The translations under genes were made by a program, and so were the position numbers. From contig JASTWF010000330.1 of assembly GCA_030390025.1 (NCBI GenBank), positions 434,001 to 498,000 of the forward strand: DNA of 64,000 nucleotides, written 5' to 3'. Shown here in pieces: positions 17,589-63,505 of the stretch (positions are counted from its first letter, which is position 1; every line of letters starts with the position of its first letter). This DNA comes from Squalus acanthias (lineage: Eukaryota). Under the pieces are notes generated by a model. That model had not been told where the DNA came from and ran no database searches. It saw nothing but the letters and a program-made list of their open reading frames with translations.

Positions 17589-17684
17589 CTGAGGCTGCTG
17601 ACACTGCTGGGATAGTGGATGAACCGTCAGGAGATTCTTCAGTTGGTTGTTCCCCGGATGCCTGATTTGGGGACGTGGCCGGAC
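17589..17684 (-). CDS. Candidate 96-nt exon, GPATSPNQASGEQPTEESPDGSSTIPAVSAAS
   Basis: - strand: tctctcttcctttattgcag|GTCCGG...GCCTCAG|gtatct; 96 nt, open in phase 1. Confidence 0.72.
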
Positions 17685-20072
17685 CTGCAATAAAGGAAGA
17701 GAGAGATTGGAGAGTGGAGGAGTGAAGAACTCCAGAACAGTTCACCAGACTGAGACTAGAGCTGGAGAATGTCAGACACCAATCTTTATATGACCCAGAA
17801 TCATCCAATCCCACTCACCTCAGGAACTGTGTCCCACTCCCCTCAGGAACTGTGTCCCACTGCCCTCAGGAACTGCGTCCCACTCACCTCAGGAACTGCG
17901 TCCCAGTCCCCTCAGGAACTGTGTCCCACTCCCCTCAGTAACTGTTTCCCACTATCCTCAGGAACTGCCTCCCACTCCCCTCAGGAACTGTATCCCACTC
18001 ACCTCAGGAACTGTGTCCCACTCCCCTCAGGAACTGTGTCCCACTCCCCTCAGGAACTGTGTCACACTCCCCTCAGGAACTGTGTCACACTGCCCTCAGG
18101 AACTGCGTCCCACTCCCCTTAGGAACTGCGTACCACTCCCCTCAGGAACTGTGTCCCACTCCCCTCAGGAACTGTGTCCCACTCCCCTCAGGAACTGTGT
18201 CCCACTCACCTCAGGAACTGTGTCCCACTCCCCTCAGAATCTCTGTCCCACTCCCCTCAGGAACTGTGTCCCACTCCCCTCAGGAACTGTGTCCCACTCA
18301 CCTCAGGAACTGTGTCCCACTCCCCTCAGAATCTCTGTCCCACTCACCTCAGGAACTGTGTCCCACTCCCCTCAGAATCTCTGTCCCACTCCCCTCAGGA
18401 ACAGTGTCCCACTCCCCTCATGAACTTTGTCCAACTCCTCAGGAACTGTGTCCCACTCCCCTCTGGAACTGTGTCCCACTCCCCTCAGGAACTGTGTCCC
18501 ACTCACCTCAGGAACTGCATCCGACTCCCCTCGGGAACGGCGTCCCACTCCCCTCAGGAACCGCGTCCCACTCCCATCAGGAACTGTGTCCCACTACCCT
18601 CTGGAACTGTGTCCCACTCCCCTCAGGAACTGTGTCCCACTCCTCTCAGGAACTGTGTCCCACTCCCCTCAGGAACTGCGTTCCACTCCCCACAGAAACT
18701 GTGTCTCACTCCCCTCAGGATCTGTGTCCCACTCCCCTCAGTCTCCTCACACACTCACCACAGTCTCCTCATCCCACTCCCCTCAGCCTCCTCATTCCAC
18801 TCCGCTCAGTCTCCTGACCCCATCACATCAGTCTCCTCATCCCACTCCCATCTGTCTCCTCATCCCACTACCTTCAGTCACCTCATTGCACTCCCCTCAG
18901 TTCCCACATCCCACTCCCCTCAGTTCCCACATCCCACTCCCCTCAGTCTCCTCATCCCACTCCCCTCAGTCTCCTCATCCCACTAACCTCAGTCTCCTCA
19001 TTCCACTCTCCTCCGTCTCCTCATCCCACTCCCCTGAGTTCTCTCATCCTACTCCTAACAGTCTTCTCATCCCACTCCCCTCATTCTCCTCATCGGTCTC
19101 CCTTCAGTCTCCTCATCCCACTCCCCTCAATCTCCTCATCCCACTCCCCTCAGTCTCCTTAACTAACCCCCCTCAGTCTCATCTCCCCACTCCCCTCAGT
19201 CTCCTCATCCCACTCCCCTCAGTCTCCTCATCCCAATCCCCTCAGTCTCCTGGATCACACTCACATCAGTCTCCTCATCCCACTCCCCTCAGTCTCCTGA
19301 TCCCACTCGCCTCTGTCCCCTCATTCCACTCCCCTCAGTTCCCACATCCCACTCCCCTCAGTCTCCTCATCCCACTCCCTTCAGTCTCCTCATCCCACTC
19401 CCCTCAGTCTCCTGATCCCACATTCGCTCAGTCTCCTCATCCCACTCACTTCAGTCTCCTCATCCCACTCCCCTCAGTCTCCTGATCCCACATTCCCCTC
19501 AGGCTCCTCATCCCACTCCCCTCAGTCTCCTCTTCCCACTCCCCTCAGTCTCCTCATCCCACTCCCCTCAGTCTCCTCAACCCACTCCCCTCAGTCTCCT
19601 GGATCACACTCCCATCACTCTCCTCATCCCACTCCCCTCAGTCTCCTAATCCCTCTCGCCTTTTTCACCTCAACCCACACCATTCAGTCTCGTAATCCAA
19701 ATGCCCTCAGTCTGCTCATGCCACTCCCCTAAGTCCACTCACCTCACTCCCTCAGTCTCCTCATGCCGCTCCCCTCAGTCTCCTCATCCCACTCCCCTCA
19801 GTTCCCTCATCCAACTGCCCTGTGTCTCCTCATCCCACTCCCCTCAGTGTCCTCATACCACACACCGCAGGCTCCTCATCCCACTCCCTTCAGTCACGAT
19901 ACTCACTCCCCTCAGTCTCCTCATCCCTCTCCCCTAAGTCTACTCATCCCACTCCCCTCAGTCACGATACCCTTTTCCTCAGTAAGAGATTGGATGAATC
20001 TCCGGGAATGAGGTTTTCAGGAGTCACATTGAGTGAACACACTGTAAACAATGGGCCCCACAAGACAGATAC

Positions 20073-20168
20073 CTGAGGCTGCTGACACTGCTGGGATAGT
20101 GGATGAACCGTCAGGAGATTCTTCAGTTGGTTGTTCCCCGGATGCCTGATTTGGGGACGTGGCCGGAC
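20073..20168 (-). CDS. Candidate 96-nt exon, GPATSPNQASGEQPTEESPDGSSTIPAVSAAS
   Basis: Same as 17589-17684; ttgcag acceptor, gtatct donor. Confidence 0.72.
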
Positions 20169-22555
20169 CTGCAATAAAGGAAGAGAGAGATTGGAGAGTG
20201 GAGGAGTGAAGAACTCCAGAACAGTTCACCAGACTGAGACTAGAGCTGGAGAATGTCAGACACCAATCTTTATATGACCCAGAATCATCCAATCCCACTC
20301 ACCTCAGGAACTGTGTCCCACTCCCCTCAGGAACTGTGTCCCACTGCCCTCAGGAACTGCGTCCCACTCACCTCAGGAACTGCGTCCCAGTCCCCTCAGG
20401 AACTGTGTCCCACTCCCCTCAGTAACTGTTTCCCACTATCCTCAGGAACTGCCTCCCACTCCCCTCAGGAACTGTATCCCACTCACCTCAGGAACTGTGT
20501 CCCACTCCCCTCAGGAACTGTGTCCCACTCCCCTCAGGAACTGTGTCACACTCCCCTCAGGAACTGTGTCACACTGCCCTCAGGAACTGCGTCCCACTCC
20601 CCTTAGGAACTGCGTACCACTCCCCTCAGGAACTGTGTCCCACTCCCCTCAGGAACTGTGTCCCACTCCCCTCAGGAACTGTGTCCCACTCACCTCAGGA
20701 ACTGTGTCCCACTCCCCTCAGAATCTCTGTCCCACTCCCCTCAGGAACTGTGTCCCACTCCCCTCAGGAACTGTGTCCCACTCACCTCAGGAACTGTGTC
20801 CCACTCCCCTCAGAATCTCTGTCCCACTCACCTCAGGAACTGTGTCCCACTCCCCTCAGAATCTCTGTCCCACTCCCCTCAGGAACAGTGTCCCACTCCC
20901 CTCATGAACTTTGTCCAACTCCTCAGGAACTGTGTCCCACTCCCCTCTGGAACTGTGTCCCACTCCCCTCAGGAACTGTGTCCCACTCACCTCAGGAACT
21001 GCATCCGACTCCCCTCGGAACGGCGTCCCACTCCCCTCAGGAACCGCGTCCCACTCCCATCAGGAACTGTGTCCCACTACCCTCTGGAACTGTGTCCCAC
21101 TCCCCTCAGGAACTGTGTCCCACTCCTCTCAGGAACTGTGTCCCACTCCCCTCAGGAACTGCGTTCCACTCCCCACAGAAACTGTGTCTCACTCCCCTCA
21201 GGATCTGTGTCCCACTCCCCTCAGTCTCCTCACACACTCACCACAGTCTCCTCATCCCACTCCCCTCAGCCTCCTCATTCCACTCCGCTCAGTCTCCTGA
21301 CCCCATCACATCAGTCTCCTCATCCCACTCCCATCTGTCTCCTCATCCCACTACCTTCAGTCACCTCATTGCACTCCCCTCAGTTCCCACATCCCACTCC
21401 CCTCAGTTCCCACATCCCACTCCCCTCAGTCTCCTCATCCCACTCCCCTCAGTCTCCTCATCCCACTAACCTCAGTCTCCTCATTCCACTCTCCTCCGTC
21501 TCCTCATCCCACTCCCCTGAGTTCTCTCATCCTACTCCTAACAGTCTTCTCATCCCACTCCCCTCATTCTCCTCATCGCTCTCCCTTCAGTCTCCTCATC
21601 CCACTCCCCTCAGTCTCCTCATCCCACTCCCCTCAGTCTCCTTAACTAACCCCCCTCAGTCTCATCTCCCCACTCCCCTCAGTCTCCTCATCCCACTCCC
21701 CTCAGTCTCCTCATCCCAATCCCCTCAGTCTCCTGGATCACACTCACATCAGTCTCCTCATCCCACTCCCCTCAGTCTCCTGATCCCACTCGCCTCTGTC
21801 CCCTCATTCCACTCCCCTCAGTTCCCACATCCCACTCCCCTCAGTCTCCTCATCCCACTCCCTTCAGTCTCCTCATCCCACTCCCCTCAGTCTCCTGATC
21901 CCACATTCGCTCAGTCTCCTCATCCCACTCACTTCAGTCTCCTCATCCCACTCCCCTCAGTCTCCTGATCCCACATTCCCCTCAGGCTCCTCATCCCACT
22001 CCCCTCAGTCTCCTCTTCCCACTCCCCTCAGTCTCCTCATCCCACTCCCCTCAGTCTCCTCAACCCACTCCCCTCAGTCTCCTGGATCACACTCCCATCA
22101 CTCTCCTCATCCCACTCCCCTCAGTCTCCTAATCCCTCTCGCCTTTTTCACCTCAACCCACACCATTCAGTCTCGTAATCCAAATGCCCTCAGTCTGCTC
22201 ATGCCACTCCCCTAAGTCCACTCACCTCACTCCCTCAGTCTCCTCATGCCGCTCCCCTCAGTCTCCTCATCCCACTCCCCTCAGTTCCCTCATCCAACTG
22301 CCCTGTGTCTCCTCATCCCACTCCCCTCAGTGTCCTCATACCACACACCGCAGGCTCCTCATCCCACTCCCTTCAGTCACGATACTCACTCCCCTCAGTC
22401 TCCTCATCCCTCTCCCCTAAGTCTACTCATCCCACTCCCCTCAGTCACGATACCCTTTTCCTCAGTAAGAGATTGGATGAATCTCCGGGAATGAGGTTTT
22501 CAGGAGTCACATTGAGTGAACACACTGTAAACAATGGGCCCCACAAGACAGTTAC

Positions 22556-22651
22556 CTGAGGCTGCTGACACTGCTGGGATAGTGGATGAACCGTCAGGAG
22601 ATTCTTCAGTTGGTTGTTCCCCGGATGCCTGATTTGGGGACGTGGCCGGAC
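22556..22651 (-). CDS. Candidate 96-nt exon, GPATSPNQASGEQPTEESPDGSSTIPAVSAAS
   Basis: ttgcag acceptor; donor variant CAG|gtaact keeps GT. Confidence 0.72.
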
Positions 22652-24186
22652 CTGCAATAAAGGAAGAGAGAGATTGGAGAGTGGAGGAGTGAAGAACTCC
22701 AGAACAGTTCACCAGACTGAGACTAGAGCTGGAGAATGTCAGACACCAGTCTTTATATGACCCAGAATCATCCAATCCCACTCACCTCAGGAACTGTGTC
22801 CCACTCCCCTCAGGAACTGTGTCCCACTGCCCTCAGGAACTGCGTCCCACTCACCTCAGGAACTGCGTCCCAGTCCCCTCAGGAACTGTGTCCCACTCCC
22901 CTCAGTAACTGTTTCCCACTATCCTCAGGAACTGCCTCCCACTCCCCTCAGGAACTGTATCCCACTCACCTCAGGAACTGTGTCCCACTCCCCTCAGGAA
23001 CTGTGTCCCACTCCCCTCAGGAACTGTGTCACACTCCCCTCAGGAACTGTGTCACACTGCCCTCAGGAACTGCGTCCCACTCCCCTTAGGAACTGCGTAC
23101 CACTCCCCTCAGGAACTGTGTCCCACTCCCCTCAGGAACTGTGTCCCACTCCCCTCAGGAACTGTGTCCCACTCACCTCAGGAACTGTGTCCCACTCCCC
23201 TCAGAATCTCTGTCCCACTCCCCTCAGGAACTGTGTCCCACTCCCCTCAGGAACTGTGTCCCACTCACCTCAGGAACTGTGTCCCACTCCCCTCAGAATC
23301 TCTGTCCCACTCACCTCAGGAACTGTGTCCCACTCCCCTCAGAATCTCTGTCCCACTCCCCTCAGGAACAGTGTCCCACTCCCCTCATGAACTTTGTCCA
23401 ACTCCTCAGGAACTGTGTCCCACTCCCCTCTGGAACTGTGTCCCACTCCCCTCAGGAACTGTGTCCCACTCACCTCAGGAACTGCATCCGACTCCCCTCG
23501 GGAACGGCGTCCCACTCCCCTCAGGAACCGCGTCCCACTCCCATCAGGAACTGTGTCCCACTACCCTCTGGAACTGTGTCCCACTCACCTGAGGAACTGC
23601 ATCCGACTCCCCTCGGGAACGGCGTCCCACTCCCCTCAGGAACCGCGTCCCACTCCCCTCAGGAACTGTGTCCCACTCCCCTCAGGAACTGTGTCCCACT
23701 CCCCTCAGAAACTGCGTCCCACTCCCCTCAGGAACTGCATCCGACTCCCCTCGGGAACTGCGTCCTACACCCATCAGGAACTGCGTCCGACTGCCCTCGG
23801 GAGCTTCGTCCCACTCCACTCAGGAACTGCATCCCACTCCCCTCAGGAACTGCATCCCACTCCCTCAGGAATTGTGTCCCACTCCCCTCAGGAACTGTGT
23901 CCCACTCCCTCACTCTCCGCATTCCACTTCCCTCAGTCTCCACATCCCACTCGCCTCAATCTCCTCACCCCCGTCACCTCTGTCTCCGCATCCCACTCCC
24001 CTCAGTTCCCGCATCCCACTCCAATCCGTCTCCTCATCCCACTCCCCTCAGTCCCCTCATCCCACGACCACAAGTCTCCTCCTCCCACTCTCTCAGTAAG
24101 AGATTGGATGAATCTCCGGGAATGAGGTTTTCAGGAGTCACATTGAGTGAACAGAATGTAAACAATGGGCCCCACAAGACAGATAC

Positions 24187-24282
24187 CTGAGGCTGCAGAC
24201 ACTGCTGGGATATTGGATGAACGGTCAGCAAATTCCTCAGTTGGTTGTTCCTCCGTTTCCTGATTTGGGGACGTTGCCGGAC
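24187..24282 (-). CDS. Candidate 96-nt exon, GPATSPNQETEEQPTEEFADRSSNIPAVSAAS
   Basis: ttacag acceptor, gtatct donor; sequence intermediate between the G-type and D-type exons. Confidence 0.72.
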
Positions 24283-25646: not shown

Positions 25647-26146
25647 NNNNNNNNNNNNNNNNNNNNNNNNNNNNNNNNNNNNNNNNNNNNNNNNNNNNNN
25701 NNNNNNNNNNNNNNNNNNNNNNNNNNNNNNNNNNNNNNNNNNNNNNNNNNNNNNNNNNNNNNNNNNNNNNNNNNNNNNNNNNNNNNNNNNNNNNNNNNNN
25801 NNNNNNNNNNNNNNNNNNNNNNNNNNNNNNNNNNNNNNNNNNNNNNNNNNNNNNNNNNNNNNNNNNNNNNNNNNNNNNNNNNNNNNNNNNNNNNNNNNNN
25901 NNNNNNNNNNNNNNNNNNNNNNNNNNNNNNNNNNNNNNNNNNNNNNNNNNNNNNNNNNNNNNNNNNNNNNNNNNNNNNNNNNNNNNNNNNNNNNNNNNNN
26001 NNNNNNNNNNNNNNNNNNNNNNNNNNNNNNNNNNNNNNNNNNNNNNNNNNNNNNNNNNNNNNNNNNNNNNNNNNNNNNNNNNNNNNNNNNNNNNNNNNNN
26101 NNNNNNNNNNNNNNNNNNNNNNNNNNNNNNNNNNNNNNNNNNNNNN
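25647..26146. other. Assembly gap (500 N)
   Basis: Run of exactly 500 N; repeat and exon orientation invert across it. Confidence 0.99.
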
Positions 26147-26332: not shown

Positions 26333-26428
26333 ATCCGGAAACACTCACAGCACAGGAACCCGAGGAACAGTCGACTCGAGAATCCACTGACCGTTCATTC
26401 ACTATCCCAGTGGGGTCTGCAGTCTCAG
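26333..26428 (+). CDS. Candidate 96-nt exon, DPETLTAQEPEEQSTRESTDRSFTIPVGSAVS
   Basis: tctctcttcatttattacag|ATCCGG...GTCTCAG|gtatct. Confidence 0.72.
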
Positions 26429-28364: not shown

Positions 28365-28460
28365 ATCCGGAAACACCCACAACACAGGAACCCGAGGAAC
28401 AGTCGACTCGAGAATCCACTGACCGTTCATCCACTATCCCAGTGGGGTCTGCAGTCTCAG
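28365..28460 (+). CDS. Candidate 96-nt exon, DPETPTTQEPEEQSTRESTDRSSTIPVGSAVS
   Basis: ttcctttattacag| ... CAG|gtatct. Confidence 0.72.
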
Positions 28461-29112: not shown

Positions 29113-29208
29113 ATCCGGAAACACTCACAGCACAGGAACCCGTGGAACAGTCGACTCGAGAATCCACTGACCGTTCATTCACTATCCCAGTGGGGTCTGC
29201 AGTCTCAG
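29113..29208 (+). CDS. Candidate 96-nt exon, DPETLTAQEPVEQSTRESTDRSFTIPVGSAVS
   Basis: Canonical ttacag / gtatct flanks, 96 nt. Confidence 0.72.
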
Positions 29209-30757: not shown

Positions 30758-30853
30758 ATCCGGAAACACTCACAGCACAGGAACCCGAGGAACAGTCGAC
30801 TCGAGAATCCACTGACCGTTCATTCACTATCCCAGTGGGGTCTGCAGTCTCAG
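30758..30853 (+). CDS. Candidate 96-nt exon, DPETLTAQEPEEQSTRESTDRSFTIPVGSAVS
   Basis: Canonical flanks; duplicate of 26333 (offset 4425). Confidence 0.72.
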
Positions 30854-47362: not shown

Positions 47363-47400
47363 TTAGTGGGGGGGAGGTTTCAAGAGAGCAAAAAATAAAA

Positions 47401-50351: not shown

Positions 50352-50811
50352 GTCTAGGTTCGGATCGGTCATGGCCCTGTGGGTAGTGGAGCGGACCCAG
50401 GGACCGTGTAGCCTGATTCTGCTCCTATTTCGTGTGTGCAATTCTGTTAGATGCAGGAGATGGTTCTGTGATAGATAGTAGATTGGCGGTAAGGATCAGA
50501 TCAGCCATGATCTTATTGAATGGCGGAGCAGGCTCGAGGGGCCGATTGGCCTACTCCTGCTCCTATTTCTTATGTTCTTATGTTCTTAAAAGGAGACTGT
50601 GGGGAGTGGAATGAGGAGACTGAAGGGAGTGTGGATGACGAGACTGAAGGGAATGGATGAGGAGGCTGAAGGGAGTGAGATGACGAGACTGAGAGGAGTG
50701 GGATGAGGAGATGGGGGGAGTGGGATGAGGTGACTGAGGGGAATGGGATGAGGAGACTGAGGGGAGCTGGATGAGGAGACTTAGGGGAGCTGGATGAGGA
50801 GACTGAGGGGA

Positions 50812-51311
50812 NNNNNNNNNNNNNNNNNNNNNNNNNNNNNNNNNNNNNNNNNNNNNNNNNNNNNNNNNNNNNNNNNNNNNNNNNNNNNNNNNNNNNNNNN
50901 NNNNNNNNNNNNNNNNNNNNNNNNNNNNNNNNNNNNNNNNNNNNNNNNNNNNNNNNNNNNNNNNNNNNNNNNNNNNNNNNNNNNNNNNNNNNNNNNNNNN
51001 NNNNNNNNNNNNNNNNNNNNNNNNNNNNNNNNNNNNNNNNNNNNNNNNNNNNNNNNNNNNNNNNNNNNNNNNNNNNNNNNNNNNNNNNNNNNNNNNNNNN
51101 NNNNNNNNNNNNNNNNNNNNNNNNNNNNNNNNNNNNNNNNNNNNNNNNNNNNNNNNNNNNNNNNNNNNNNNNNNNNNNNNNNNNNNNNNNNNNNNNNNNN
51201 NNNNNNNNNNNNNNNNNNNNNNNNNNNNNNNNNNNNNNNNNNNNNNNNNNNNNNNNNNNNNNNNNNNNNNNNNNNNNNNNNNNNNNNNNNNNNNNNNNNN
51301 NNNNNNNNNNN
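50812..51311. other. Assembly gap (500 N)
   Basis: Run of exactly 500 N; orientation inverts back across it. Confidence 0.99.
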
Positions 51312-51318
51312 CAGATAC

Positions 51319-51414
51319 CTGAGACTGCAGACCACACTGGGATAGTGGATGAACGGTCAGTGGATGCTCGAGTCGACTGTTCCTCGGGTTCCTGTGTTGT
51401 GGGTGTTTCCGGAT
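51319..51414 (-). CDS. Candidate 96-nt exon, DPETPTTQEPEEQSTRASTDRSSTIPVWSAVS
   Basis: Weaker AAG acceptor (ttattaaag), gtatct donor; lies at the contig edge. Confidence 0.58.
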
Positions 51415-52757
51415 CTTTAATAAAGGAAGAGAGACATGGGAGAGTGCAGAGTGGAGAAAACCAGAACAGGTCATCAGGCTGGAACTGAAGCCAATCTCAA
51501 TCCCACTCACGAACTGCGTCCCACTCCCTGAAGGAACTGTGTCCCACTCCCCTCAGGAACGGTGTCCCACTCCCCTCAGGAACTACGTCCCACTCCCTAA
51601 AGGAACTGTGTCCCACTCCCGAAAGGAACTGTGTCCCACTCCAATCAGGAGCTGCGTCCCACTCCCTAAATGAACTGTGTCCCACTCCCCTCAGGAACTG
51701 CATCCCACACCCCTCAGGAACCGTGTCCCACTCCCCTTAATCTCCTCATCCCACTCCACAACGTATTCCCATCCCGTTCCCCACAGTCTCCTCATCCCAC
51801 TCCCCTCAGTCTCCTCATCCAGCTCCACTAAGTCTCCTCATCCAGCTCCCCTCAGTCTCCTCATCCCATTCCCCTCAGTCACTTCATCCCACTACCCCCA
51901 TCTCCTCATCCCACTCCCCTCAGTCTCGTCATCCCACTCCCTTCAGTCTCCTCATCCAGCTCCCCTCAGTTTCCTCATCCCACTCCCCTCAGTCTCCTCA
52001 TCCCACTCCCCTAAGTCTCCTCATCCCACTCCCCTCAGTCTGCACATCACACTCCCCTCAGTTTTCTCATCCCACTCCCTTCAGTCTCCTCATCCCACTC
52101 CCTTCAGTCTCGTCATCCACACTCCCTTCAGTCTCCTCATTCCACTCCCCTCAGTCTCCTTTTCCCACTCCCCTCAGTCTCCTCATCCCACTCCCCTCGG
52201 TCTCCTCATCCCACTCCACTCAGTCTCATTGTCCCACTCCCTTCAGTCTCATTTTCCCACTCCCCTCTGTCTCCTCATCCCACTCCCCTCTGTCTCCTCA
52301 TCCCACTCCACTCGGTCTCCTCATCCCAATCCCTTCAGTCTCCTTTTCCCATTCCCCTCAGTCTCCTCATCGCACTCCCCTCAGTCTCCTCATCCCAGTC
52401 CCCTCAGTCTCCTCATCCCAATACACTCAGTCTCCTTTTCCCGCTCCCCTCAGTCTCCTCATCCCACTCCCCTCAGTCTCCTCATCCCACTCCCCTCAGT
52501 CTCCTCATCCCATTCCGTTCTGTCTCCTTTTCCCACTCCCCTCAGTCTCCTCATCCCACTTCCCTCAGTATCCACATCCCACTTCCCTCAGTATCCACAT
52601 CCCTCTCCACTCAGTCTCCTCATCCCACTCCCTTCAGTCTCCTCATCCCGCTCCCCTCAGTCACAACACCCACTCACTCAGTAAGAGACTGGATGAGCTT
52701 TTCAGGAGTCACATTGGTTGAACAGACTGTACTCAATGGACCGAATGAGACAGATAC

Positions 52758-52853
52758 CTGAGACTGCAGACCCCACTGGGATAGTGAATGAACGATCACT
52801 GGATTCTCGAGTCGACTGCTCCTCGGGTTCCTGTGTTCTGGATATGTCCGGAT
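52758..52853 (-). CDS. Candidate 96-nt exon, DPDISRTQEPEEQSTRESSDRSFTIPVGSAVS
   Basis: Canonical flanks; a small deletion lies in the upstream intron, not in the exon. Confidence 0.72.
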
Positions 52854-55177
52854 CTGTAATAAAGTAAGAGAGACATGGGAGTGTAGAGTGGAGAAAACCA
52901 GAACAGGACATTAGGCTGGTACTGGAGCCAATCACAATCCCACTCACTCACTGCATCCACTCCCTTCAGTCTCCTCATCACACTCCCCCTAGTCTCCTCA
53001 TATCATTCCACAAAATATTGTCATCCCATTCCCCACAGTCTCCACATTCCACTCACCTCTGTCTCCTCATCCCACTCTCCTTAGTTTCCTCAGTCCACTC
53101 CCCTCAGGCTCCTCATCCCTCTCCCCTCAGTCTCCTCATCACACTCCCCTTAATCTCCTCATAACACTCCACAAAGTGTTCTCATCCCATTCCCCCAGTC
53201 TCCTCATCCAGCTCCCCTCAGTCTCCTCGTCCCACTCCCCTCAGTCTCCTCATCCCACTCCACTCAGTCACCTCATCCCACTCCCCTCAGTCTCCTCATC
53301 CCACTCCCCTAAGTCTCCTCATCCCAATCCCCTCAGTCTCCTCATCCCACTCCCCTCAGCCTCCTCATCCCACTCCCCTCAGCCACCTCAATCCACTCCC
53401 CTCAGTCTCCTCATCCAGCTCCACTAAGTCTCCTCATCCAGCTCCCCTCAGTCTCCTCATCCCACTCCCCTCACTCTCCTCCCCCCACTCCACTCACTCT
53501 CCTCCTCCCACTCCCCTCAGTCTCCTCATCCCACTCCCCTCAGTCTCCTCCTCCCACTCTCCTCAGTCTCTTCATCCCACTCCCCTCAGTCTCCTCCTAC
53601 CACTCCCCTCAGTCTCCTCATCCCACTCCCCTCAGTCTCCTCATCACACTCCCCTCAGTCTCCTCATCCCACTACCCTCAGTCTCCTCATCCCACTCCCC
53701 ACAGTCTCATCCCACTCCCCTCAGTCTCCTCATCCCACTCGCCTCAGTCTACGCATCCCACTCCCTTCGGTCTCCTCATCCCACTACACTCAGTCTCCTC
53801 ATTCCACTCCCCTCAGTCTCCTCATCTCACTTCCCTCTTTCTCCGCAACCCACTCCCATCAATCTCCTCATCCCACTCCCCTCAGTCTCCTCATCCCACT
53901 ACCCTGAGGCTCCTCGTCCCACTCCCCTCTGTCTCCTTATCCCCCTCCCCTCAGTCTCCTCATCCCACTCCCCTCAGTTTCATCATTCCACTACCCTCAG
54001 TCACCTCATCCCACTCCCCTCAGTTTCCTCATTCCACTACCCTCAGTCTCCTCATCCCACTCCCCTCAGTCTTCTCATTCCACTACCCTCAGTCTCCTCA
54101 TCCCACTCCCCTCAGTCTCCTCATTGCACTACCCTCAGGCTCCTCGTCCCACTCCCATCAGTCTCCTCATCCCAGTCCCATCATTCTCCTCATCCCACTC
54201 CCCTCAGTCTCCTCATCCCATTCCACACAGTCTCCTCATCCCACTCCCTCAGTCTCCTCATCCCACTCCACACAGTCTCCTCATCCCACTTCCCTCAGTC
54301 TCCTCATCCCACTCCCCTCAGTCTCCTCAACCCACTCCCCTCAGTCTCCTCATCCCAATCCCTTCTGTCTCCTCATCCAACTCCCCTCAGTCACCTCATC
54401 CCACTTGCCTTAGTCCCCACATCCCAAAGCACTCAGTCTCCTCATCCCATTGCCCTTAGTCTCCTCATCCCACTCCCCTCAGTCTCCACATCCCACTTCC
54501 CTCAATATCCACTTACCACTCCCCTCAGTCTCCTCATCCCACTCCCCTCAGTCTCCTCATCCCACTCCCCTCAGTGTCCTCATCCCACTCCCCTCAGTCT
54601 CCTCATCCCACTCCCCTCAGTCTCCTCATCCCACTCCCCTCAGTCTCCTCATCCCACTCCCCTCAGTTTCCTCATCCAGCTCCCCTCAGTCTCCTCATCC
54701 CACTCCCCTCAGTCTCCTCATCCCACTCCCCTCAGTCTCCACATCCCATTCCCCTCAATCTCCTCATCCCACTCCCCTCAGTTTCCTCATCCAACTCCCC
54801 TCAGTCTCGTCATCCCACTCCCTTCAGTCTCCTCATCCCACTCCCCAAAGGCTCCTCATCCCACTTCACTCAGTCTCCTCATCCCACTCCCTTCAGTCTC
54901 CTTTTCCCACTCCACTCAGTCTCCTCATCCCACTTCCCTCAATATCCACTTCCCACTCCACTCAGTCTCCTCATCCCACTCCCCTCAGTCTCCTCATCCC
55001 ACTTCCCTCAGTCTCCTCATCCCACTACCCTCAGTCTCCTCATCCCACTCCCTTCAGTCTCCTCATCCCGCTGCCCTCAGTCACAACACCCACTCACTCA
55101 GTAAGAGACTGGATGATCTTTTCAGGAGTCACATTGGGTGAACAGACTGTACACAATGGACCGAACGAGTCAGATAC

Positions 55178-55273
55178 CTGAGACTGCAGACCCCACTGGG
55201 ATAGTGGATGAACGGTCAGTAGATCCTCGAGTCGACTGTTCCTCGGGTTCCTGTGATGTTGGTGTAACCGGAT
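55178..55273 (-). CDS. Candidate 96-nt exon, DPVTPTSQEPEEQSTRGSTDRSSTIPVGSAVS
   Basis: Canonical flanks. Confidence 0.72.
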
Positions 55274-55580
55274 CTGTAATAAAGGAAGAGAGACATGGGA
55301 GAGTGCAGAGTGGACAAAAGCAGAACAGGTCATCAGGCTGGAGCTGAAGCCAATCACAATCCCACTCAGTCACTGCGTCCGACTCCCCTCAGGAACTGTG
55401 TCCACTCCCCTCAGGAACTGTGTCCCACTCCCCAAAAGGAACTGTGTCCCACTCCCCTCAGGAACTGCATCCCACTTCCCTCAGGAACCGTGTCCCACTC
55501 CCCTTAATCTCCTCATCCCACTTCACACAGTCTCCTCATCCCATTCCCCACATTCTCCTCATCCCACACCCCTCAGTCTC

Positions 55581-56833
55581 AGGAATTTTTTGAGGATGTT
55601 TCCAATAGGGTGGACGGGGGGGAACCAGTAGATGTGGTGTATTTGGACTTTCAGAAGGCCTTCGACCATGTCCCACACAAGAGATTGGTGATCAAAGTTA
55701 AAGCACATGGGATTGGGGGTAATGTGTTGACGTGGATTGAGAACTGATTGGCACACAGGAAACAAAGAGTAGGAGTAAATGGGTACTTTTCAGAATGGCA
55801 GGCAGTGCCCAGCGGGGTACCGCAGGGTTCGGTGCTGGGACCCCAGTTGTTTACATTATATATTAATGATTTGGACGAATGGATTAAATGTAACATCTCC
55901 AAATTTGCGGATGACACTAAATTGGGAGGCAGTGTGAACAATGAGGAGGATGCTAGGAGGCTACAGAGTGACTTGGACAGGTTGGGTGAATGGGCAAATG
56001 TATGGCAGATGAAGTACAATGTGGATAAATGTGAGGTTCTCCACTTTGGTGGTAAAAATAGAGAGGCGGACTATTACCTGAATGGTGGCAGATTAGGGAA
56101 AGGGGAGGTGCAACGAGACCTGGGCGTCATGGTACATCAGTCACTGAAGGTGGGAATGCAAGTGCAGCAGGCAGTCAAGAAAGCAAACGGAATGATGGCC
56201 TTCATAGTAAGGGGATTTGAGTACTGGAGTAGGGAGGTGATGCTGCAGTTGTACAGGGCCTTGGTGAGGCCACACCTGGAGTATTGTGCGCAGTTTTGGT
56301 CTCCTAACTTAAGGAAGGACATTCTTGCTATTGAGGGAGTGCAGCGAAGGTTCACTAGATTGATTCCTGGGATGGCCGGACTGACATATCAAGAAAGATG
56401 GGTCAACTGAACTTGTATCCTCTGGAGTTCAGAAGAATGAGGGGGGATCTTATAGAGACATTTAAAATCCTGACTGGTTTAGACAAATTAGATGTGGGCA
56501 GAATGTTCCCAATGTTAGGGAAAACTAGAACCAGGGGTCACAGTCTAAGGATTATGGGGAAGCCATTTAAGGCTGAGCTGAGGAGGAAATTCTTCACCCA
56601 GAGAGTGGTGAATCTATGGAATTCTCTTCCACAGAAGGTTGTTGAGGCCAGTTCGCTAAATATATTCAAAAGGGAGTTAGATATAACACTTACAACTAGG
56701 GGGATCAAGGGATATGGCGTGAAAGCAGGAATGGGGTACTGAGGTAGCATGTTCAGTCATGAACGCATTGAATGGCGGTGCAGGCACGAAGGACCGAATG
56801 GTATACTCCTGCAACTATTTTCTATGTTTATAT
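55581..56833 (+). mobile_element. 5'-truncated CR1-clade LINE (RT C-terminal part + 3' UTR), decayed, possible 5-bp TSD GTCTC
   Basis: EFFEDV...VVYLDFQKAFD...GVPQGSVLGP...FADDTKLGG; TGA at 55745-55747, frameshift ~56400, stop at 56742; tail TTCTATGTTTATAT; GTCTC at 55576-55580 and 56834-56838. Confidence 0.94.
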
Positions 56834-58058
56834 GTCTCCTCTTCCAGCTCCGCTAAGTCTGCTCATCCAGCTCCCCTCAGTCTCCTCATCCCATTCCCCT
56901 CAGTCACCTCATCCCACTCCCTTCAGTCTCCTCATCCCACTCCCCTCAGTCTCCTCATCCCGCGCCCCTAAGTCTCCTCATCCCATTCCCCTCAGTCACC
57001 TCATCCCACTCCCTTCAGTCTCCTCATCCCACTCCCCTCAGTCTCCTCATCCCACGCCCCTAAGTCTCCTCATCCCACTCCCCTCAGTCTCCTCATCCCA
57101 CTCCCTTCAGTCTCCTCATCCCACTCCCCTCGGTCTCCTCATACCACTCCCCTCAGTCTCCTCATCCCACTCCCCTCGGTCTCCTCATCCCACTCCCTTC
57201 AGTCTCCTCATCCCACTCCCCTCGGTCTCCTCATACCACTCCCCTCAGTCTCCTCATCCCACTCCCCTCGGTCTCCTCATACCACTCCCCTCAGTCTCCT
57301 CATCCCACTCCCCTCGGTCTCCTCATACCACTCCCCTCAGTCTCCTCATCCCACTCCCCTCAGTCTCCTCATCCCACTCCCTTCAGTCTCCTCATTCCAC
57401 AACCCTCAGTCTCCTCATCCCACTCCCTTCAGTCTCCTTTTCCCACTGCCCTCAGTCTCCTCATCGCACTCCCCTCAGTCTCCTCATCCCTGTCCCCTCA
57501 GTCTCCTCATCCCAATACACCCAGTCTCCATTTCCCACTCCCCTCAGTATCCTCATCCCACTCCCCTCAGTATCCTCATCCCACTCCCCTCAGTCTCCTC
57601 ATCCCATTCCGTTCAGTCTCCTATTCCCACTCCCCTCAGTCTCCTCATCCCACTTCCCTCAGTATCTACATCCCACTTCCCTCAGTATCCACATCCCTCT
57701 CCACTCAGTCTCCTCATCCCACTCCCTTCAGTCTTCTCATCCCGTTTCCTTCAGTCTCCATTTCCCACTCCCCTCAGTCGCCTCATCTCACTTCCCTCAG
57801 TCTCCTCATCCCACTCCCCTCAGTCTCCTCATCCCACTCCCCTCTGTCTCCTCATCCCGCTCCCCTCAGTCTCCTTTTCCCACTCCACACAGTCTCCTGA
57901 TACCACTCCTCTCAGTAACCACATCCCACTCCCCTCAGTCTCCTCATCCCGCTCCCCTCAGTCACAACATCCACTCACTCAGTAAGAGACTGGATGAGCT
58001 TTTCAGGAGTCACATTGGGTGAACAGACTGTACTCAATGGACCGAACGAGACAGATAC

Positions 58059-58154
58059 CTGAGACTGCAGACACCACTGGGATAGTGGATGGACGCTCAG
58101 TGGATTCTCGAGTCGACTGTTCCTCGGGTTCCTGTGTTGTGGATGTTTCCGGCT
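58059..58154 (-). CDS. Candidate 96-nt exon, EPETSTTQEPEEQSTRESTERPSTIPVVSAVS
   Basis: ttacag acceptor, gtatct donor. Confidence 0.7.
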
Positions 58155-58829
58155 CTGTAATAAAGGAAGAGAGACATGGGACAGTGCAGAGTGGAGAAAA
58201 CCAGAACAGGTAATCAGGCTGGAACTGGAGCCAATCACAATCCCACTCACTCACTGCGTCCGACTCCCTTTAGTCTCCTCATTCCATTCCACAAAATATG
58301 CTCATCCCATTCCCCACAGTCTCCTCATTCCACTCACCTCTGTCTCCTCATCCCACTCCCCTCAGTCTCCTCATCCAGCTCCCCTCAGTCTCCTCATCCC
58401 ACTCCACACAGTCTCCTCTTCCCTCTCCCCTCAGTCTCCTCCTCCCACGCCCATCAGTCTCATCATCCCACTCCCCAGATTCACCTCATCCCACTCCCCT
58501 CGGTCTCCTCATCCCACTCCCCTCGATCTCCACATCCCACTCCGCTCAGTCTCCTCATCCAACTCCCCTCAGCCTCCTGCTCCCACTCCCCTCAGTCTCC
58601 AAATCACACTCCACTCAGTCTCCACATCCCACTCCCCTCAGTCTCCACATCCCACTCCCCTCAGTTTGCTCATCCCACTCCCCACAGTCTCCTCATCCCA
58701 CTCCCCTCAGTCTCCTCATCCCACTACCCTCAGTCACAACACCCACTCACTCATAAGAGACTGGATGAGCTTTTCAGGAGTCACATCGGTTGAACAGACT
58801 GTACACAACGGACCGAACGAGACAGATAC

Positions 58830-58925
58830 CTAAGACTGCAGACCCCACTGGGACAGTGGATGAACGGTCAGTGGATACTCGAGTCGACTGTTCCTCGGGT
58901 TCCTGTGTTTTGGATATGTCCGGAT
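58830..58925 (-). CDS. Candidate 96-nt exon, DPDISKTQEPEEQSTRVSTDRSSTVPVGSAVL
   Basis: ttacag acceptor, TAG|gtatct donor. Confidence 0.68.
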   Translation of the reverse strand: MRTYPKHRNPRNSRLEYPLTVHPLSQWGLQS

Positions 58926-60166
58926 CTGTAATAAAGGAAGAGAGACATGGGAGAGTGTAGAGTGGAGAAAACCAGAACAGGTCATCAGGCTGGTACTGGA
59001 GCCAATCATAATCCCACTCATTAACTGCGCCCGACTCCCTTCAGTCTCATCATCCCACTCCCCTAGTCTCCTCATACCATTCCACAAAATATTCTCATCC
59101 CATTCCCCACAGTCTCCACATTCCACTCAACTGTGTCTCCTCATCCCACTCCCCTTAGTCTCCTCATCCCACTCCCCTCTGTCTCCTCATCCCACTCCCC
59201 TCTGTCTAATCATCCAGTTCCCCTCAGTCTCCTCATATCACTCCCTTCAGTCTCCTCATCACACTCCCCACAGTCACCTCATCCGACTCCCCTCAGTCTC
59301 CTCATCCCACTCCACACAGTCTCCTCATGCCACTCCCCTCAGTCTCCTCATCACACTCCCCTTAGTCTCCTCATCACGCTCCCCTCAGTCTCCTCCTCCC
59401 ACTCCCATCATCCCACACCCCACAGTCACCTCATCCCACTCCCCTCGGTCTCCTCATCACACTCCCCTCAGTCTCCTCATTCCATTCCCCTCAGCCTCCT
59501 GATCCCACTCCCCTCAGTCTCCTCCTCCCACTCCCATCAGTCTCATCATCCCACACCCCACAGTCACCTCATCCCACTCCCCTCGTTCTCCTTATCACAC
59601 TCCCCTCAGTCTCCTCATCCCACTCCCATCAGTCTCCTTATCCCACTCCCCTCACTCTCCACCTCCCACTCCACTCAGTCTCCTCATTCCATTCCCCTCA
59701 GTCTCCTCCTCCCACTCCCCTCAGTCTCCTCATCACACTCCCCTCAGTCTCCTCGTCACACTCCCCTCAGTCTCCTCATAACCCTCCACACAGTCTCCTC
59801 TTCCCACTCCCCTCAGTCTCCTCATCCCACTCCCCTCAGTCTCCTCATTCAGCTCCCCTCAGTCTCCTCGTCCCACTCCCCTCAGTCTCCTCATCCCACT
59901 CCCCTCAGTCTCCACATCCCACTCCCCACAGTCTCCTCATCCCACTTCCCTCAGTCTCCTCATCCAGCTCCCCTCAGTCTCCTCTTCCCACTCCCCTCTG
60001 TCTCATCATTCCACTCCCCTCTGTCTCCTCATCCCACTCCGCTCAGTCTCCTCATTCAGCTCCCCTCAGTCACAACACCCATTCACTCAGTAAGGGACTG
60101 GATGATCTTTTCAGGAGTCACAATGGTTGAACAGACTGTACACAATGGACCGAACGAGACAGACAC

Positions 60167-60262
60167 CTGAGGCTGCAGACCCCACTGGGATAGTGGATGA
60201 ACGGTCAGTGGATTCTCGAGTCGACTGTTCCTCGGGTTCCTGTGTTTTGGATATGTCCGGAT
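60167..60262 (-). CDS. Candidate 96-nt exon, DPDISKTQEPEEQSTRESTDRSSTIPVGSAAS
   Basis: ttgcag acceptor, donor variant CAG|gtgtct keeps GT. Confidence 0.68.
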
Positions 60263-61371
60263 CTGCAATTAAGGAAGAGAGACATGGGAAAGTGTAGAGT
60301 GGAGAAAACCAGAACAGGTCATCAGGCTGGTACTGGAGCCAATCAAAATCCCACACACTCATTGCGCCCGACTCCCTTCAGTCTCATCATCCCACTCCCC
60401 TAGTCTCCTCATACAATTCCACAAAATATTCCCATCCCATTCCCCACAGTCTCCACATTCCACTCAACTGTGTCTCCTCATCCCACTCCCCTTAGTCTCC
60501 TCATCCCACTCCACTCTGTCTCCTCATCCCACTCCCTTCAGTCTCCTCATCACACTCCCCTCAGTCTCCTCATAACACTCACCACAGTCACCTCATCCGA
60601 CTCCCCTCAGTCTCCTCATCCCACTCCACACAGTCTCCTCATGCCACTCCCCTTAGTCTCCTCATCCCACTCCCCTCAGTCTCCTCATTCCATTCCCCTC
60701 AGCCTCCTACTCCCACACCCCTCAGTCTCCTCATCCCAATCCCCTCAGTCTGCTCATCCCACCCCCTCAGTCTGCTCATCCCACTCTCCACCGTCTCCTC
60801 ATACCACTCCACTCAGTCGCCTCATCCCACCCCCTCAGTCTCCTCATTCCACTCCCCTCAGTCTCCTCCTCTCACTCCCCTCAGTCTCCTCTTCCCACTC
60901 CACACAGTCTCCTCTTCCCACTCCCCTCAGCCTCCTCATCCAGCTCCCCTCATCTCCTCCTCTCACTCCCCTCAGTCTCCTCATTCCACTCCGCTCCGTC
61001 TCCTCATCCCACTCCCCTCAGTATCCTCATTCCATTCACCTCAGTCTCCTACTCCCACACCCCTCAGTCTCCACATCCCACTCCCCACAGTCACTTCATC
61101 CCACTCCCCTCTGTCTCCTCATCCCACTCCCCTCAATCTCCTCATTCCATTCCCTTCAGCCTCCTACTCCCACTCCCCTCAGTCTCCACATCCCACTCCC
61201 CTCAGTCTCCACATCCCACTCCCTTCAGTCTCCTCATCCCACTCCACACAGTCTCCTCAACCCACTACCCTCAGTCACAACAACCACTCACTCAGTAAGA
61301 GACTGAATGAGCTTTTCAGGAGTCACATTGGGTGAACAGTCTGTACACAATGGACCGAACAAGACAGATAC

Positions 61372-61467
61372 CTGAGACTGCAGACCCCACTGGGATGGTG
61401 AATGAACGGTCAGTGGATTCTCGAGTCGACTGTTCCTCGGGTTCCTTTGTTTTGGATATGGCCGGAT
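61372..61467 (-). CDS. Candidate 96-nt exon, DPAISKTKEPEEQSTRESTDRSFTIPVGSAVS
   Basis: Canonical flanks. Confidence 0.72.
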
Positions 61468-62051
61468 CTGTAATAAAGGAAGAGAGACATGGGAGAGTGC
61501 AGAGTGGAGAAAACCAGAACAGGTCATCAGGCTGGTACTGGAGCCAATCATAATCCCACTCACTCACTGCGTCCGACTCCCTTCAGTCTCATCATCCCAC
61601 CCCCCTCAGTCTCCTCATCCAGCTCCCCAAAGTCCCCTCATCCAGCTCCCCTCAGTCTCCTCATCCCATTACCCTCAGTCACCTCACCCCACTCCCCCCA
61701 TCTCCTCATTCCACTCCCCTCAGTCTCCTCATCCCACTCCCCTCAGTCTCAACATCCCTCTCCCCTCCGTCTACTCATCCCATTCCCTTCAGTCTCGTCA
61801 TCCACACTCCCTTCAGTCTCCTCATTCCACACCCCTCAGTCTCCTCATCCCACTCCCTTGAGTCTCCTGTTCCCACTCTCCTCAGTATCCTCATCCCACT
61901 TCCCTCAATATCCACATGCCACTCCCCTCAGTCTCCTCATCCTGCTGCCCTCAGTCACGAAATCCAATCACTCAGTAAGAGACTGGATGACCTTTTCAGG
62001 AGTCACATTAGGTGAACATTCTGTACAAAATGGACCGAACGAGACAGATAC

Positions 62052-62147
62052 CTGAGACTGCAGACCCCACTGGGATAGTGAATGAACGGTCAGTGGATTC
62101 TCGAGTCGACTGTTCCTCGGGTTCCTGTGCTGTGAGTGTTTCCTGAT
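62052..62147 (-). CDS. Candidate 96-nt exon, DQETLTAQEPEEQSTRESTDRSFTIPVGSAVS
   Basis: Canonical flanks; a 1-nt deletion lies in the upstream intron only. Confidence 0.72.
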
Positions 62148-62683
62148 CTGTAATAAAGGAAGAGAGACAGGGGAGAGTGTAGAGTGGAGAAACCAGAACA
62201 GGTCATCAGGCTGGTACTGGAGCCAATCACAATCCCACTCACTCACTGCGTCCGACTGCACTCAGTCTCCTCATCCCACTGCCCTAGTCTCCTCATTCCA
62301 TTCCACAAAATATTCTCATCCCATTCCCCACAGTCTACTCATCCCACTCCCATCAGTCTCATCATCTCACTCCCCACAGTCACATCATCCCACTCCCCTC
62401 GATCTCCTCATCCCACTCCCCTCAGTCTCGTCATCCCACTCTCCTCAGTCTCCTCATCCCACTCCCCTCGGTCTCCTCATCCCACTCCCCTGAGTCTCCT
62501 CATTCCATTCCCCTCAGCCTCCTGCTCCCACTCCCCTCAGTCTCCTCATCCCACTCCCCTCAGTCTCCTCATCCCGCTCCCCTCAGTCACAACACCCACT
62601 CATTCAGTAAGAGACTGGATGAGCTTTTCAGGAGTCACATTGGGTGAACAGACTGAACACAATGGACCGAACGAGACAGATAC

Positions 62684-62779
62684 CTGAGACTGCAGACCCC
62701 ACTGGGATACTGGATGAACGGTCAGTGGATTCTCGAGTCGACTGTTCCTCGGGTTCCTGTGCTGTGAGTGTTTCCGGAT
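62684..62779 (-). CDS. Candidate 96-nt exon, DPETLTAQEPEEQSTRESTDRSSSIPVGSAVS
   Basis: ttacag / gtatct flanks. Confidence 0.72.
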
Positions 62780-63409
62780 CTGTAATAAATGAAGAACGAC
62801 AGGGGAGAGTGTAGAGTGGAGAAAACCAGAACAGGTCATCAGGCTGGAACTGGAGCCAATCACAATCCCACTCACTCACTGCGTCCGAATACCTGCAGTG
62901 TCTTCATCCAGCTCCCCTTAGATTCCTCATACCATTCCACAAAATATTCTCATCCCATTCCCCACAGTCTCCTCATTCCACTCACCTCAGTCTCCTCATC
63001 ACATTCCCCTCTGTCTCTACATCCAACTCCCCTCAGTCTCCTCATCCCACTCCCCTCAGTCTCCTCATTCCATTCACCTCAGTCTCCTACTCCCACACCC
63101 CTCAGTCTCCACATCCCACTCCCCACAGTCACTTCATCCCACTCCCCTCTGTCTCCTCATCCCACTCCCCTCAATCTCCTCATTCCATTCCCTTCAGCCT
63201 CCTACTCCCACTCCCCTCAGTCTCCACATCCCACTCCCCTCAGTCTCCACATCCCACTCCCTTCAGTCTCCTCATCCCACTCCACACAGTCTCCTCAACC
63301 CACTACCCTCAGTCACAACAACCACTCACTCAGTAAGAGACTGAATGAGCTTTTCAGGAGTCACATTGGGTGAACAGACTGTACACAATGTACCGAACAA
63401 GACAGATAC

Positions 63410-63505
63410 CTGAGACTGCAGACCCCACTGGGATGGTGAATGAACGGTCAGTGGATTCTCGAGTCGACTGTTCCTCGGGTTCCTTTGTTTTGGATATGGC
63501 CGGAT
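63410..63505 (-). CDS. Candidate 96-nt exon, DPAISKTKEPEEQSTRESTDRSFTIPVGSAVS
   Basis: Canonical flanks; duplicate of 61372 (offset 2038). Confidence 0.72.

Follow-up and report, generated by a model that had tools for sequence, protein, structure and literature searches.

What can be hidden in a stretch of shark DNA that looks like pure satellite? We address this question for a window of 64,000 nucleotides from Squalus acanthias, by which we mean the whole stretch of DNA that was analysed (C2562:434001-498000; scaffold C2562 is 537,009 bp long and belongs to an assembly of 3.71 Gb and 3,882 contigs, GCA_030390025.1). An earlier reading of the letters alone, here called the original prediction, had proposed that cassettes set in this satellite carry genuine symmetric exons of an extracellular protein rich in Ser, Thr, Pro and Glu, and the exon phases, a signal peptide, D8C-bearing homologues and exon-exon joined forms now agree with that proposal. 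Based on our findings, we propose that the 96-nt units of these cassettes are coding exons, entered and left in phase 1 (phase 1-1), of a gene for a secreted, mucin-like protein headed by a D8C domain, with one 32-aa repeat per exon, and we put the probability of this reading at about 0.72. It draws on the exon structure and phases of the units, on homology, on a gene part found upstream, on a sibling gene with both of its ends and on joined sequences in public sequencing runs.

Twenty-eight repeat exons in the window

A BLAST search of the window with one 96-mer gave 31 matches: 28 exon copies and three truncated pieces of 39 nt. A 23-bp satellite (GACTGAGGGGAGTGGGATGAGGA) surrounds the cassettes that hold them. 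Two gaps of 500 N (25647-26146 and 50812-51311), at each of which the sign of the GC skew flips, divide the window into three contigs. Of the exon copies, four are found in 17589-24282 (minus strand), 14 in 26333-46573 (plus strand) and 10 in 51319-63505 (minus strand); the three contigs and these counts are those that the original prediction had given. Every one of the 28 copies is 96 nt long, is preceded by AG and is followed by GT. The bases beside these dinucleotides vary, and all the variants listed beforehand are present: the acceptors ttacag, ttgcag, ttatag and ttaaag, and the donor gtatct, replaced once by gtaact and once by gtgtct. Frame +2, in which one base is carried over from the previous exon, is free of stops in all 28 copies and translates as DPETPTTQEPEEQSTRESTDRSSTIPVGSAVS and variants of it or, with the carried base included, as D-PETPTTQEPEEQSTRESTDRSSTIPVGSAVS and variants, while frame +1 meets a stop in every copy. 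The 28 cassettes, their AG/GT borders, their exact length and their open phase 1-1 frame had all been claimed in advance, and both BLAST and our frame check bear them out copy for copy.

The four exons of the first contig, all on the minus strand, belong to a type that we call type 2 (G-PATSPNQASGEQPTEESPDGSSTIPAVSAAS). They are found at 17589-17684, at 20073-20168 (identical to the former), at 22556-22651 (with the gtaact donor) and at 24187-24282 (a variant). All the others are of type 1 (D-PETLTAQEPEEQSTRESTDRSFTIPVGSAVS). On the plus strand of the second contig they lie at 26333-26428, 28365-28460 (exactly the type-1 consensus), 29113-29208, 30758-30853 (identical to the exon at 26333, by a 4.4-kb block duplication), 32788-32883 (identical to that at 28365), 34355-34450, 37836-37931, 39772-39867, 41086-41181 (identical to that at 34355), 41881-41976, 43649-43744 (identical to that at 37836), 44707-44802 (acceptor ttatag), 45844-45939 and 46478-46573, the last having its downstream intron flank cut by a long interspersed nuclear element (LINE). 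On the minus strand of the third contig they lie at 51319-51414 (acceptor ttaaag, adjoining the N gap), 52758-52853, 55178-55273, 58059-58154, 58830-58925 (ending ..CTTAG, with frame 0 closed and frame +2 open), 60167-60262 (donor gtgtct), 61372-61467, 62052-62147, 62684-62779 (where contigs from public runs join the last base to the first base of a like exon, as described below) and 63410-63505.

The head of the gene upstream of the array

We read C2562 from 334,001 to 537,009 around the window array. Upstream of the array, on the plus strand, lies the head of a gene. A short-query tblastn located a signal-peptide exon at C2562:344,363-344,396, with an ATG start, the reading MRTLLLILGYL, the donor gtaagt and an exit in phase 1; MRTLLLILGYL matches the N-termini of five homologues. 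It is followed by three exons of a D8C module, all on the plus strand as well: exon 1 at C2562:372,279-372,423 (phase 1 in and phase 2 out; IAESTLTDPCENHTVLDQPWRSTDC...; E down to 3e-22), exon 2 at C2562:379,931-380,007 (phases 2-1) and exon 3 at C2562:380,101-380,265 (phases 1-1), which ends ...GCT TAT TGC ACA G|gt. An open frame reading through two exons matched the Pfam family D8C_UMOD (PF23283) with an E value of 8.9e-11 and 42.3 bits, the cut-off being 27. The phases of the signal-peptide, D8C and repeat exons are all compatible with one another. Since D8C exon 3 (...TATTGCACAG|gt) leaves in phase 1, the next exon opens with two bases that complete a codon, either G|AT for Asp or G|GT for Gly. 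The Asp at this border is what the homologues have ('AYCT-DPET...'), and the frame that it sets equals the one named in the original prediction, which had also pointed to the flanks as the place to look for a signal peptide and a globular domain; both are there, as the signal-peptide exon and the three-exon D8C module. A Pfam search of the open frames of at least 70 aa in the 5' flank, in which the array was not scanned frame by frame, gave no ZP or EGF modules.

P0026, a close homologue, has 10 cysteines in its D8C module and the window gene only 9: the cysteine in front of ...AYCT is lacking (KPTPNWNLAYCT), so that an odd one is left over. About 7 kb of a 49-bp satellite (C2562:372.6-379.8 kb) fill the intron that separates D8C exon 1 from exon 2, and the first intron holds an 18-kb AT-rich block (C2562:346-364 kb, GC about 0.23) that is probably an AT-rich satellite.

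Relatives in sharks and rays

A word-indexed search with D8C exon 3 returned 21 candidates, of which 20 had E values of 0.001 or less; all 20 come from sharks and rays and all have PF23283. The homologues, from at least seven shark and ray species, have a common layout: the signal peptide is followed by one to three D8C domains, all with ...AYCT at their end, and these by two to about eight homologous 32-aa repeats, after which the models carry a C-terminal domain of one of two classes. Examples of the repeats are DPETSTSQRPEEQTTRESAESPSSIPAGSPDS in Heptranchias and DPETVATEEPEEQSTRESARGSSSTPAVSGTS in Heterodontus, and the Amblyraja model has about eight units. The gene described here has in common with these models the MRTLLLIL... 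signal peptide, the D8C domain ending ...AYCT and 32-aa repeats of the form DPET..EEQSTRE..STIP.GS. The models carry automatic names throughout: 'uromodulin-like, partial' and 'serine-rich 25 kDa antigen protein-like' isoforms X1 and X2 (XP_067836995.1 / XP_067836996.1) in Heptranchias perlo, uncharacterized proteins (e.g. XP_067883189.1) in Heterodontus francisci, isoforms of LOC121274841 in Carcharodon carcharias, LOC144672830 in Cetorhinus maximus, LOC116975639 in Amblyraja radiata, and 'mucin-5AC-like' and 'GP2-like' in Pristiophorus japonicus. The D8C search found no gene model from the present genome, and the best D8C identity was 78%.

The repeat exons alone lead to the same family. A profile made from 20 window exon translations (31 aa) found nine proteins among 1.84 billion representatives, eight of them at E values of 1e-10 or less (7e-35 to 5e-13), and all eight belong to this family, in Pristiophorus japonicus, Heptranchias perlo and Heterodontus francisci; none of the matches has more than four matched stretches. 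The repeat is therefore conserved across orders, and since its motif has been kept across species, it has been under long-term constraint. In Heptranchias, the difference between isoforms X1 and X2 amounts to exactly 32 aa, or one repeat, which fits the skipping of a symmetric exon. In one Heptranchias model the upstream intron flank appears translated at the N-terminus, and it aligns with the flank found here, suggesting that the flank too may be conserved between species. Two public models from other sharks, P0007 and P0010, continue into transposon sequence or read the repeat exon in a wrong frame (…SQRCLQPQPRDISNSGARG…); evidently automatic annotation struggles with genes that combine D8C domains and these repeats.

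A sibling gene with both ends

The same design is present a second time on C2562, where we read the region from 199 to 265 kb. The D8C exons of this sibling gene lie at C2562:262,361-262,723 on the minus strand, and its array of 34 complete cassettes runs on the same strand from 261.8 to 208.7 kb in one gap-free stretch. Twenty-eight of the cassettes have an exon of 81 nt (D-PDTYTTQSTQESTDRSSTIPVGSADS, 27 aa), shortened by an in-frame loss of 15 nt, and six have the 96-nt exon. Further along the minus strand there is a C-terminal exon of class 2 (C2562:178,524-178,409; phase-1 acceptor, G-VLHLTDEECEKVSAEVQVMYVGKSNLDTPEKKEAYLRQ), which is the genome's best match to that domain (E 4.7e-15) and which has in common with the shark and ray models the reading VL.LTDE.CE.V.A.VQVMY.G...; a terminal exon at C2562:157,273-157,175 (-) ends ...KKGK-TGA. 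On a single strand the sibling gene thus combines a D8C head, dozens of single-repeat exons and a tail, and it is oriented head-to-head with the window gene.

In the whole genome the repeat-exon motif occurs 112 times at one mismatch or less, against 0 and 1 times for reversed controls, and most of the occurrences are on C2562. Further clusters at one mismatch, with 13 copies at C9:41.87-41.91 Mb (+) and four at C2450:6.228-6.238 Mb (+), suggest more arrays on other contigs.

Exons joined in public runs

Contigs from four public runs were compared with positions 61300-63600 of the window, and the joints below are given for the exon at 62684-62779 (-). No holder recorded as RNA came out of the run search, and the RNA kind of the four runs is a guess, one having been picked by its small word share (0.06) and three by species label. 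In run contig X1 a joint leads from 62779 to 62684 (back 96), that is from the last base of the exon to an exon's first base. X2 has the same joint with 19 intervening letters, which on the sense strand, together with the aligned part, reproduce the 81-nt exon at C2562:259,190 over its first 33 nt. X3 has a loose end just past the last base of the exon, and this end is the start of another exon of the 81-nt type. In X4 and X1 a loose end reads ...TATTGCACAG|ATCC..., which is the end of a D8C exon 3 joined to a repeat exon. The 17-nt motif formed by the exon end and the exon start has no exact match in the 3.7-Gb assembly, and its 17 one-mismatch matches are scattered, none of them on C2562; the assembled DNA thus lacks the joined form. 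There is good support for the splicing of this exon family at the borders that had been predicted, and junctions of the ...CTCAG|ATCCGG... type, by which the original prediction had proposed to check itself, are found in contigs of public runs whose kind is guessed. The exon pieces in these contigs are 92-97% like the window exons, none of them exact, and at least one junction carries the 81-nt form of the sibling array; the joined forms therefore cannot be assigned to the 28 exons of the window. In X1 intron flanks are covered as well, and its source could be DNA.

The same evidence bears on the idea that the cassettes are a repeat without coding function, with an open frame and AG/GT borders that arose by chance. 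A point absent from the original prediction would suit such a repeat: frame 0 is also stop-free in 27 of the 28 window copies, so that two of the three frames are open. The lack of residue-level constraint among the copies, described below, would suit it as well. An accidental frame would not, however, be expected to match predicted shark proteins at E values from 7e-35 to 5e-13, to agree in phase with an upstream D8C exon or to be accompanied by joined exon-exon forms in public runs, and we regard this explanation as very unlikely, close to the point where it could be dropped.

Extent and growth of the array

Over the window and its surroundings, BLAST and a profile hidden Markov model of the cassette count 56 complete exon copies across 388.6-506.0 kb of C2562, all of them 96 nt long with AG, GT and an open frame +2; one further exon is cut by a contig end. 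Type 1 accounts for 44 of the copies and type 2 (G-PATSPNQETEEQPTEESADGSSTIPAVSAAS) for 12, the latter being confined to the contig at 407-459 kb. Several exons have identical copies at fixed distances: at about 4.42 kb (scaffold coordinates 460333/464758 and 462365/466788), at 2,038 bp (495467/497505, 496147/498185 and 496779/498817) and at about 2.48 kb (451684/454168/456651). Blocks of several exons were thus duplicated as the array grew.

The repeating unit would consist of about 70-100 nt of conserved intron flank, the exon, about 95 nt of conserved flank and a variable stretch of the 23-bp satellite. In the window this satellite occupies the introns of contig 1 (1-25646, -), where it is G-rich on the exon sense strand, of contig 2 (26524-45649, +) and of contig 3 (51501-63994, -); the G-rich strand is the exon sense strand in every contig of the array. 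Unequal crossing-over within the intronic satellite may have multiplied the unit, giving rise to higher-order blocks and to at least 56 complete exons. Satellite units are also 70-79% complementary to the pyrimidine-rich 30 nt before the acceptor (window 46099-46466 and every cassette), and judging from this complementarity satellite RNA could pair with the acceptor region and mask it. We found no inverted repeats able to pair the two ends of an intron.

The exons of the array are spread over four contigs whose strands alternate + - + -. An artefact of assembly could account for this, if a much shorter repeat region had been inflated and scrambled into its present copy number and three-contig layout by haplotype copies or mis-joins: the strand flips at each of three gaps of 500 N, C2562 measures 537 kb in an assembly of 3,882 contigs, and the D8C exons of C2562:55.9-69.4 kb are mirrored on a second scaffold (C3832:106-122 kb). 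We tried haplotig duplication as an explanation and found it not supported. Contigs A to D have no alignment of at least 700 bp at 95% or more in common, except for two stretches of pure satellite, and for this reason they are not copies of one another beyond the satellite. Exon variants differ between contigs, and the 34 cassettes of the sibling array stand on a single gap-free stretch. An artefact of this kind is, in our judgement, quite improbable.

Constraint on the exons and points against the reading

Over the 56 complete copies no indel event falls in the 96 exon columns, against eight in 170 aligned flank bases, in agreement with the earlier statement that the flanks have indels and the exons have none. 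If events fell uniformly, the chance of sparing the exon would be (170/266)^8, or about 0.03, and this value is optimistic because the copies arose by block duplication and are not independent. The flank events include one about 29-30 nt upstream of the exon in a single copy and one about 47 nt upstream in two copies (scaffold 496147, which is window 62147, and 498185); they plausibly correspond to the sites near 52880 and 62190 mentioned in the original prediction, the copy of the first one not being traced. The only variant of exon length seen is the loss of 15 nt, which is in frame. Among 102 distinct exon variants none has a stop, while 13 of the 288 possible single changes (4.5%) would create one; the corresponding probability of about 0.009 would hold for independent variants and is optimistic for the same reason.

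The consensus exons of types 1 and 2 are identical at 75 of 96 positions (78%) and differ at 21, whereas their flanks agree at 60 of 69 positions in the upstream 70 nt (87%) and at 49 of 55 in the first 55 nt downstream (89%); conservation is thus higher in the intron flanks than in the exon. A symmetric exon set between conserved flanks is a typical arrangement for regulated cassette exons. The ratio of nonsynonymous to synonymous differences (pN/pS) is 0.92 between the two consensus sequences, 2.2 within type 1 and 1.08 within type 2. Among the copies, constraint acts on the frame and not on the residue sequence.

Besides the second open frame, the limits on the public-run contigs and the dependence among copies, several observations weigh against our reading. 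There is no purifying selection on residues among the copies. The first repeat exon after the D8C module is a dead copy, interrupted by a LINE fragment of about 780 bp. The window contains dead cassettes as well: three 5'-truncated ones and two without an exon. Of the truncated ones, that at 3816-3957 (-) retains the 3' 39 nt of a type-2 exon with its downstream flank, its acceptor and 5' half having been replaced by satellite, and two further 5'-truncated type-2 relics lie at 9671-9812 (-) and 15345-15486 (-), the former in keeping with a higher-order period of about 5.8 kb; in the exon-less cassettes at 33376-33490 (+) and 40337-40451 (+) the upstream flank is fused to the downstream flank. 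One of the 34 sibling cassettes has its donor GT changed to AT. The last 31 kb of the scaffold, from 506 to 537 kb, consist of satellite alone. Downstream of the window array in 334-537 kb, and elsewhere on C2562 in the right orientation, we found no C-terminal exon of either class; since the scaffold ends in satellite, the 3' exon may simply be unassembled. Finally, the contig orientations of + - + - mean that the window exons as assembled cannot form one transcript. The original prediction had taken the window for the interior of one large gene with a repeat domain of about 900 aa (28x32). That it is the interior of a large gene still stands; the figure does not agree with at least 56 exons, nor, as assembled, does a single transcript agree with the alternating contigs.

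Many of these points would also be expected if the array had a real exon origin and most window copies had since become a runaway higher-order satellite outside any productive mRNA, so that at most a few exons near the D8C head would be used and the uniform length and AG/GT borders would reflect recent duplication and homogenisation and not selection. The many identical copies at fixed offsets, pN/pS values of about 1-2, the relics and exon-less cassettes, the pure-satellite stretches (one of 16 kb in the C2562 region read, in addition to the 31 kb at the scaffold end), the alternating orientation, the missing 3' exon and the lack of any annotated relative with more than about eight repeats would all fit. 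On the other hand, types 1 and 2 have diverged at 21 of 96 positions and yet both keep the length, the borders and the open frame; stops are absent from 102 variants, and indels from exons whose flanks have eight. The gene around the 34 cassettes of the sibling has its two ends on the same strand, and the 81-nt exon form of this array is seen joined exon-to-exon in public-run contigs. We therefore consider such a loss of function possible for this locus but unlikely, and retain the reading of the 96-nt units as exons of a D8C-headed gene.

The proposed protein and its relation to known systems

From the exon structure, the protein would consist of a signal peptide, a D8C/D10C module with the 'decoy' fold of uromodulin and GP2, and, after these, a series of 32-aa repeats that are acidic and rich in Ser, Thr and Pro. 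Among the 1,728 residues encoded by 54 exons, Ser and Thr make up 34%, Pro 11% and Asp and Glu 20%, and there is no Cys. The product would be a secreted glycoprotein; the stalk that carries its D8C head would be long, extended and negatively charged, and probably O-glycosylated, the glycosylation being predicted from composition alone. Because every exon is symmetric, the length of the stalk can vary by copy number or by exon skipping with the frame intact. Joint transcription of the window's own exons, the glycosylation and the function are what we infer from these observations. As to function, uromodulin, GP2 and the teleost omcins allow, by analogy, a guess at a role in binding pathogens or in lubrication at mucosal or other surfaces.

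The head has clear counterparts outside the sharks. Residues 170-295 of human UMOD align with the shark family member P0026 at an E value of 5e-29, and the decoy module of GP2 (PDB 7p6r) aligns with it at 1e-26. An N-glycan sequon at WLNG[ST] is kept in sharks. The UMOD sequon at N275 (YYVYNLT), which we take to be the high-mannose FimH site, is not kept; the sharks read VYELKP or YFVYELQP/KP. The decoy module of uromodulin and GP2 is described as presenting a high-mannose glycan to the bacterial adhesin FimH (PMC8930769). The shark proteins also differ from UMOD and GP2 in their overall architecture: in six D8C-bearing shark and ray models Pfam gave D8C as the sole family above cut-off, and thus neither EGF domains nor the ZP polymerisation module, and UMOD and GP2 are without a Ser/Thr/Pro repeat stalk.

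The nearest functional precedent in fish, as far as analogy goes, is offered by the zebrafish omcins. They are described as a lineage-specific, tandemly expanded family of D10C-domain proteins, called teleost-specific, one member of which is induced by E. coli and protects against infection; Omc5 has five D10C domains, EGF IV and a ZP module and is predicted to be anchored by glycosylphosphatidylinositol (PMC11415648). The likeness to the present family lies in the tandem expansion of D10C proteins, and the difference in the 32-aa exon repeats, which the omcins as described there do not have.

The repeats invite comparison with two other groups of proteins. In classical mucins, Ser/Thr/Pro-rich tandem repeats usually lie inside one large exon. 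The stalk proposed here resembles their proline-, threonine- and serine-rich (PTS) or variable-number tandem repeat (VNTR) segments in being Ser/Thr/Pro-rich, cysteine-free, tandemly repeated and extracellular, but it has one repeat per exon and is strongly acidic (the 20% of Asp and Glu given above), and Pfam found none of the vWD, CysD and SEA domains of mucins in the homologue models. Segments lengthened by tandem duplication of exon(s) and intron, with symmetric exons, are known from the PEVK exons of titin and from kringle IV-2 of LPA. These proteins are unrelated to the present one, in which a mucin-like segment is built from units of one 96-nt (or 81-nt) exon each and satellite makes up the introns. 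A literature search, which did not cover subscription journals, found nothing on a shark D8C/mucin-like family or on mucins built one repeat per exon. The claim that this architecture is unlike that of the usual mucins holds in that each repeat has an exon to itself; a family with two to about eight repeats was, in contrast, already annotated automatically. What is already known is therefore the gene family, as automatic predictions in other sharks and rays. What is new here is the filling of the introns with the 23-bp satellite, and the scale: two genes that lie next to each other in divergent orientation have at least 56 and 34 repeat exons, against two to about eight repeats in the shark and ray models.

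A bolder proposal, which we put forward tentatively and hold to be doubtful as a whole, is that the two head-to-head genes encode secreted D8C glycoproteins with stalks of about 1,000 to at least 1,800 residues, put together from dozens of symmetric one-repeat exons, that the conserved flanks and the G-rich satellite, which is complementary to the polypyrimidine tract, control the inclusion of exons, and that copy number shifts between individuals. One locus might then yield a population of stalk lengths and repeat variants, while unequal crossing-over would keep changing the number of exons from one individual to another. The product would be a mucin-like defence or surface molecule, specific to cartilaginous fish, that is tunable by both splicing and recombination.

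For annotation, the locus shows that a long protein-coding region can lie concealed in what appears to be pure satellite and would be masked for that reason, and gene finders that mask repeats or cap the number of exons miss or truncate genes of this kind. It is also an extreme and clean case of the growth of a protein domain by tandem duplication of an exon with its intron, with the intronic satellite as the likely engine of recombination. It further links a very large, uncharacterised expansion of UMOD/GP2-type D8C genes in sharks to mucin-like stalks, which makes these proteins a candidate family for mucosal or surface defence.

Other features of the window and the scaffold

Two stretches were considered as flanks of the gene and rejected. 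The region of the window at 46.6-50.6 kb is not the 3' flank; it is a LINE insertion within an intron (46610-50590, +, with endonuclease and reverse transcriptase over three open frames), behind which the satellite resumes. The scaffold end at 506-537 kb is likewise not a flank, being pure satellite with no similarity to the 5' flank.

In the first part of the window (1-17500) a second variant of the 23-bp satellite (GGAACTGTGTCCCACTCCCCTCA, plus strand) dominates contig 1; it has the higher-order period of about 5.8 kb and bears the truncated exon relics. Outside the window, the D8C exon family is hugely expanded across the genome, with 11,387 first-look candidates; 142 matches came from the 90 candidates that were scored, and they lie on many scaffolds.

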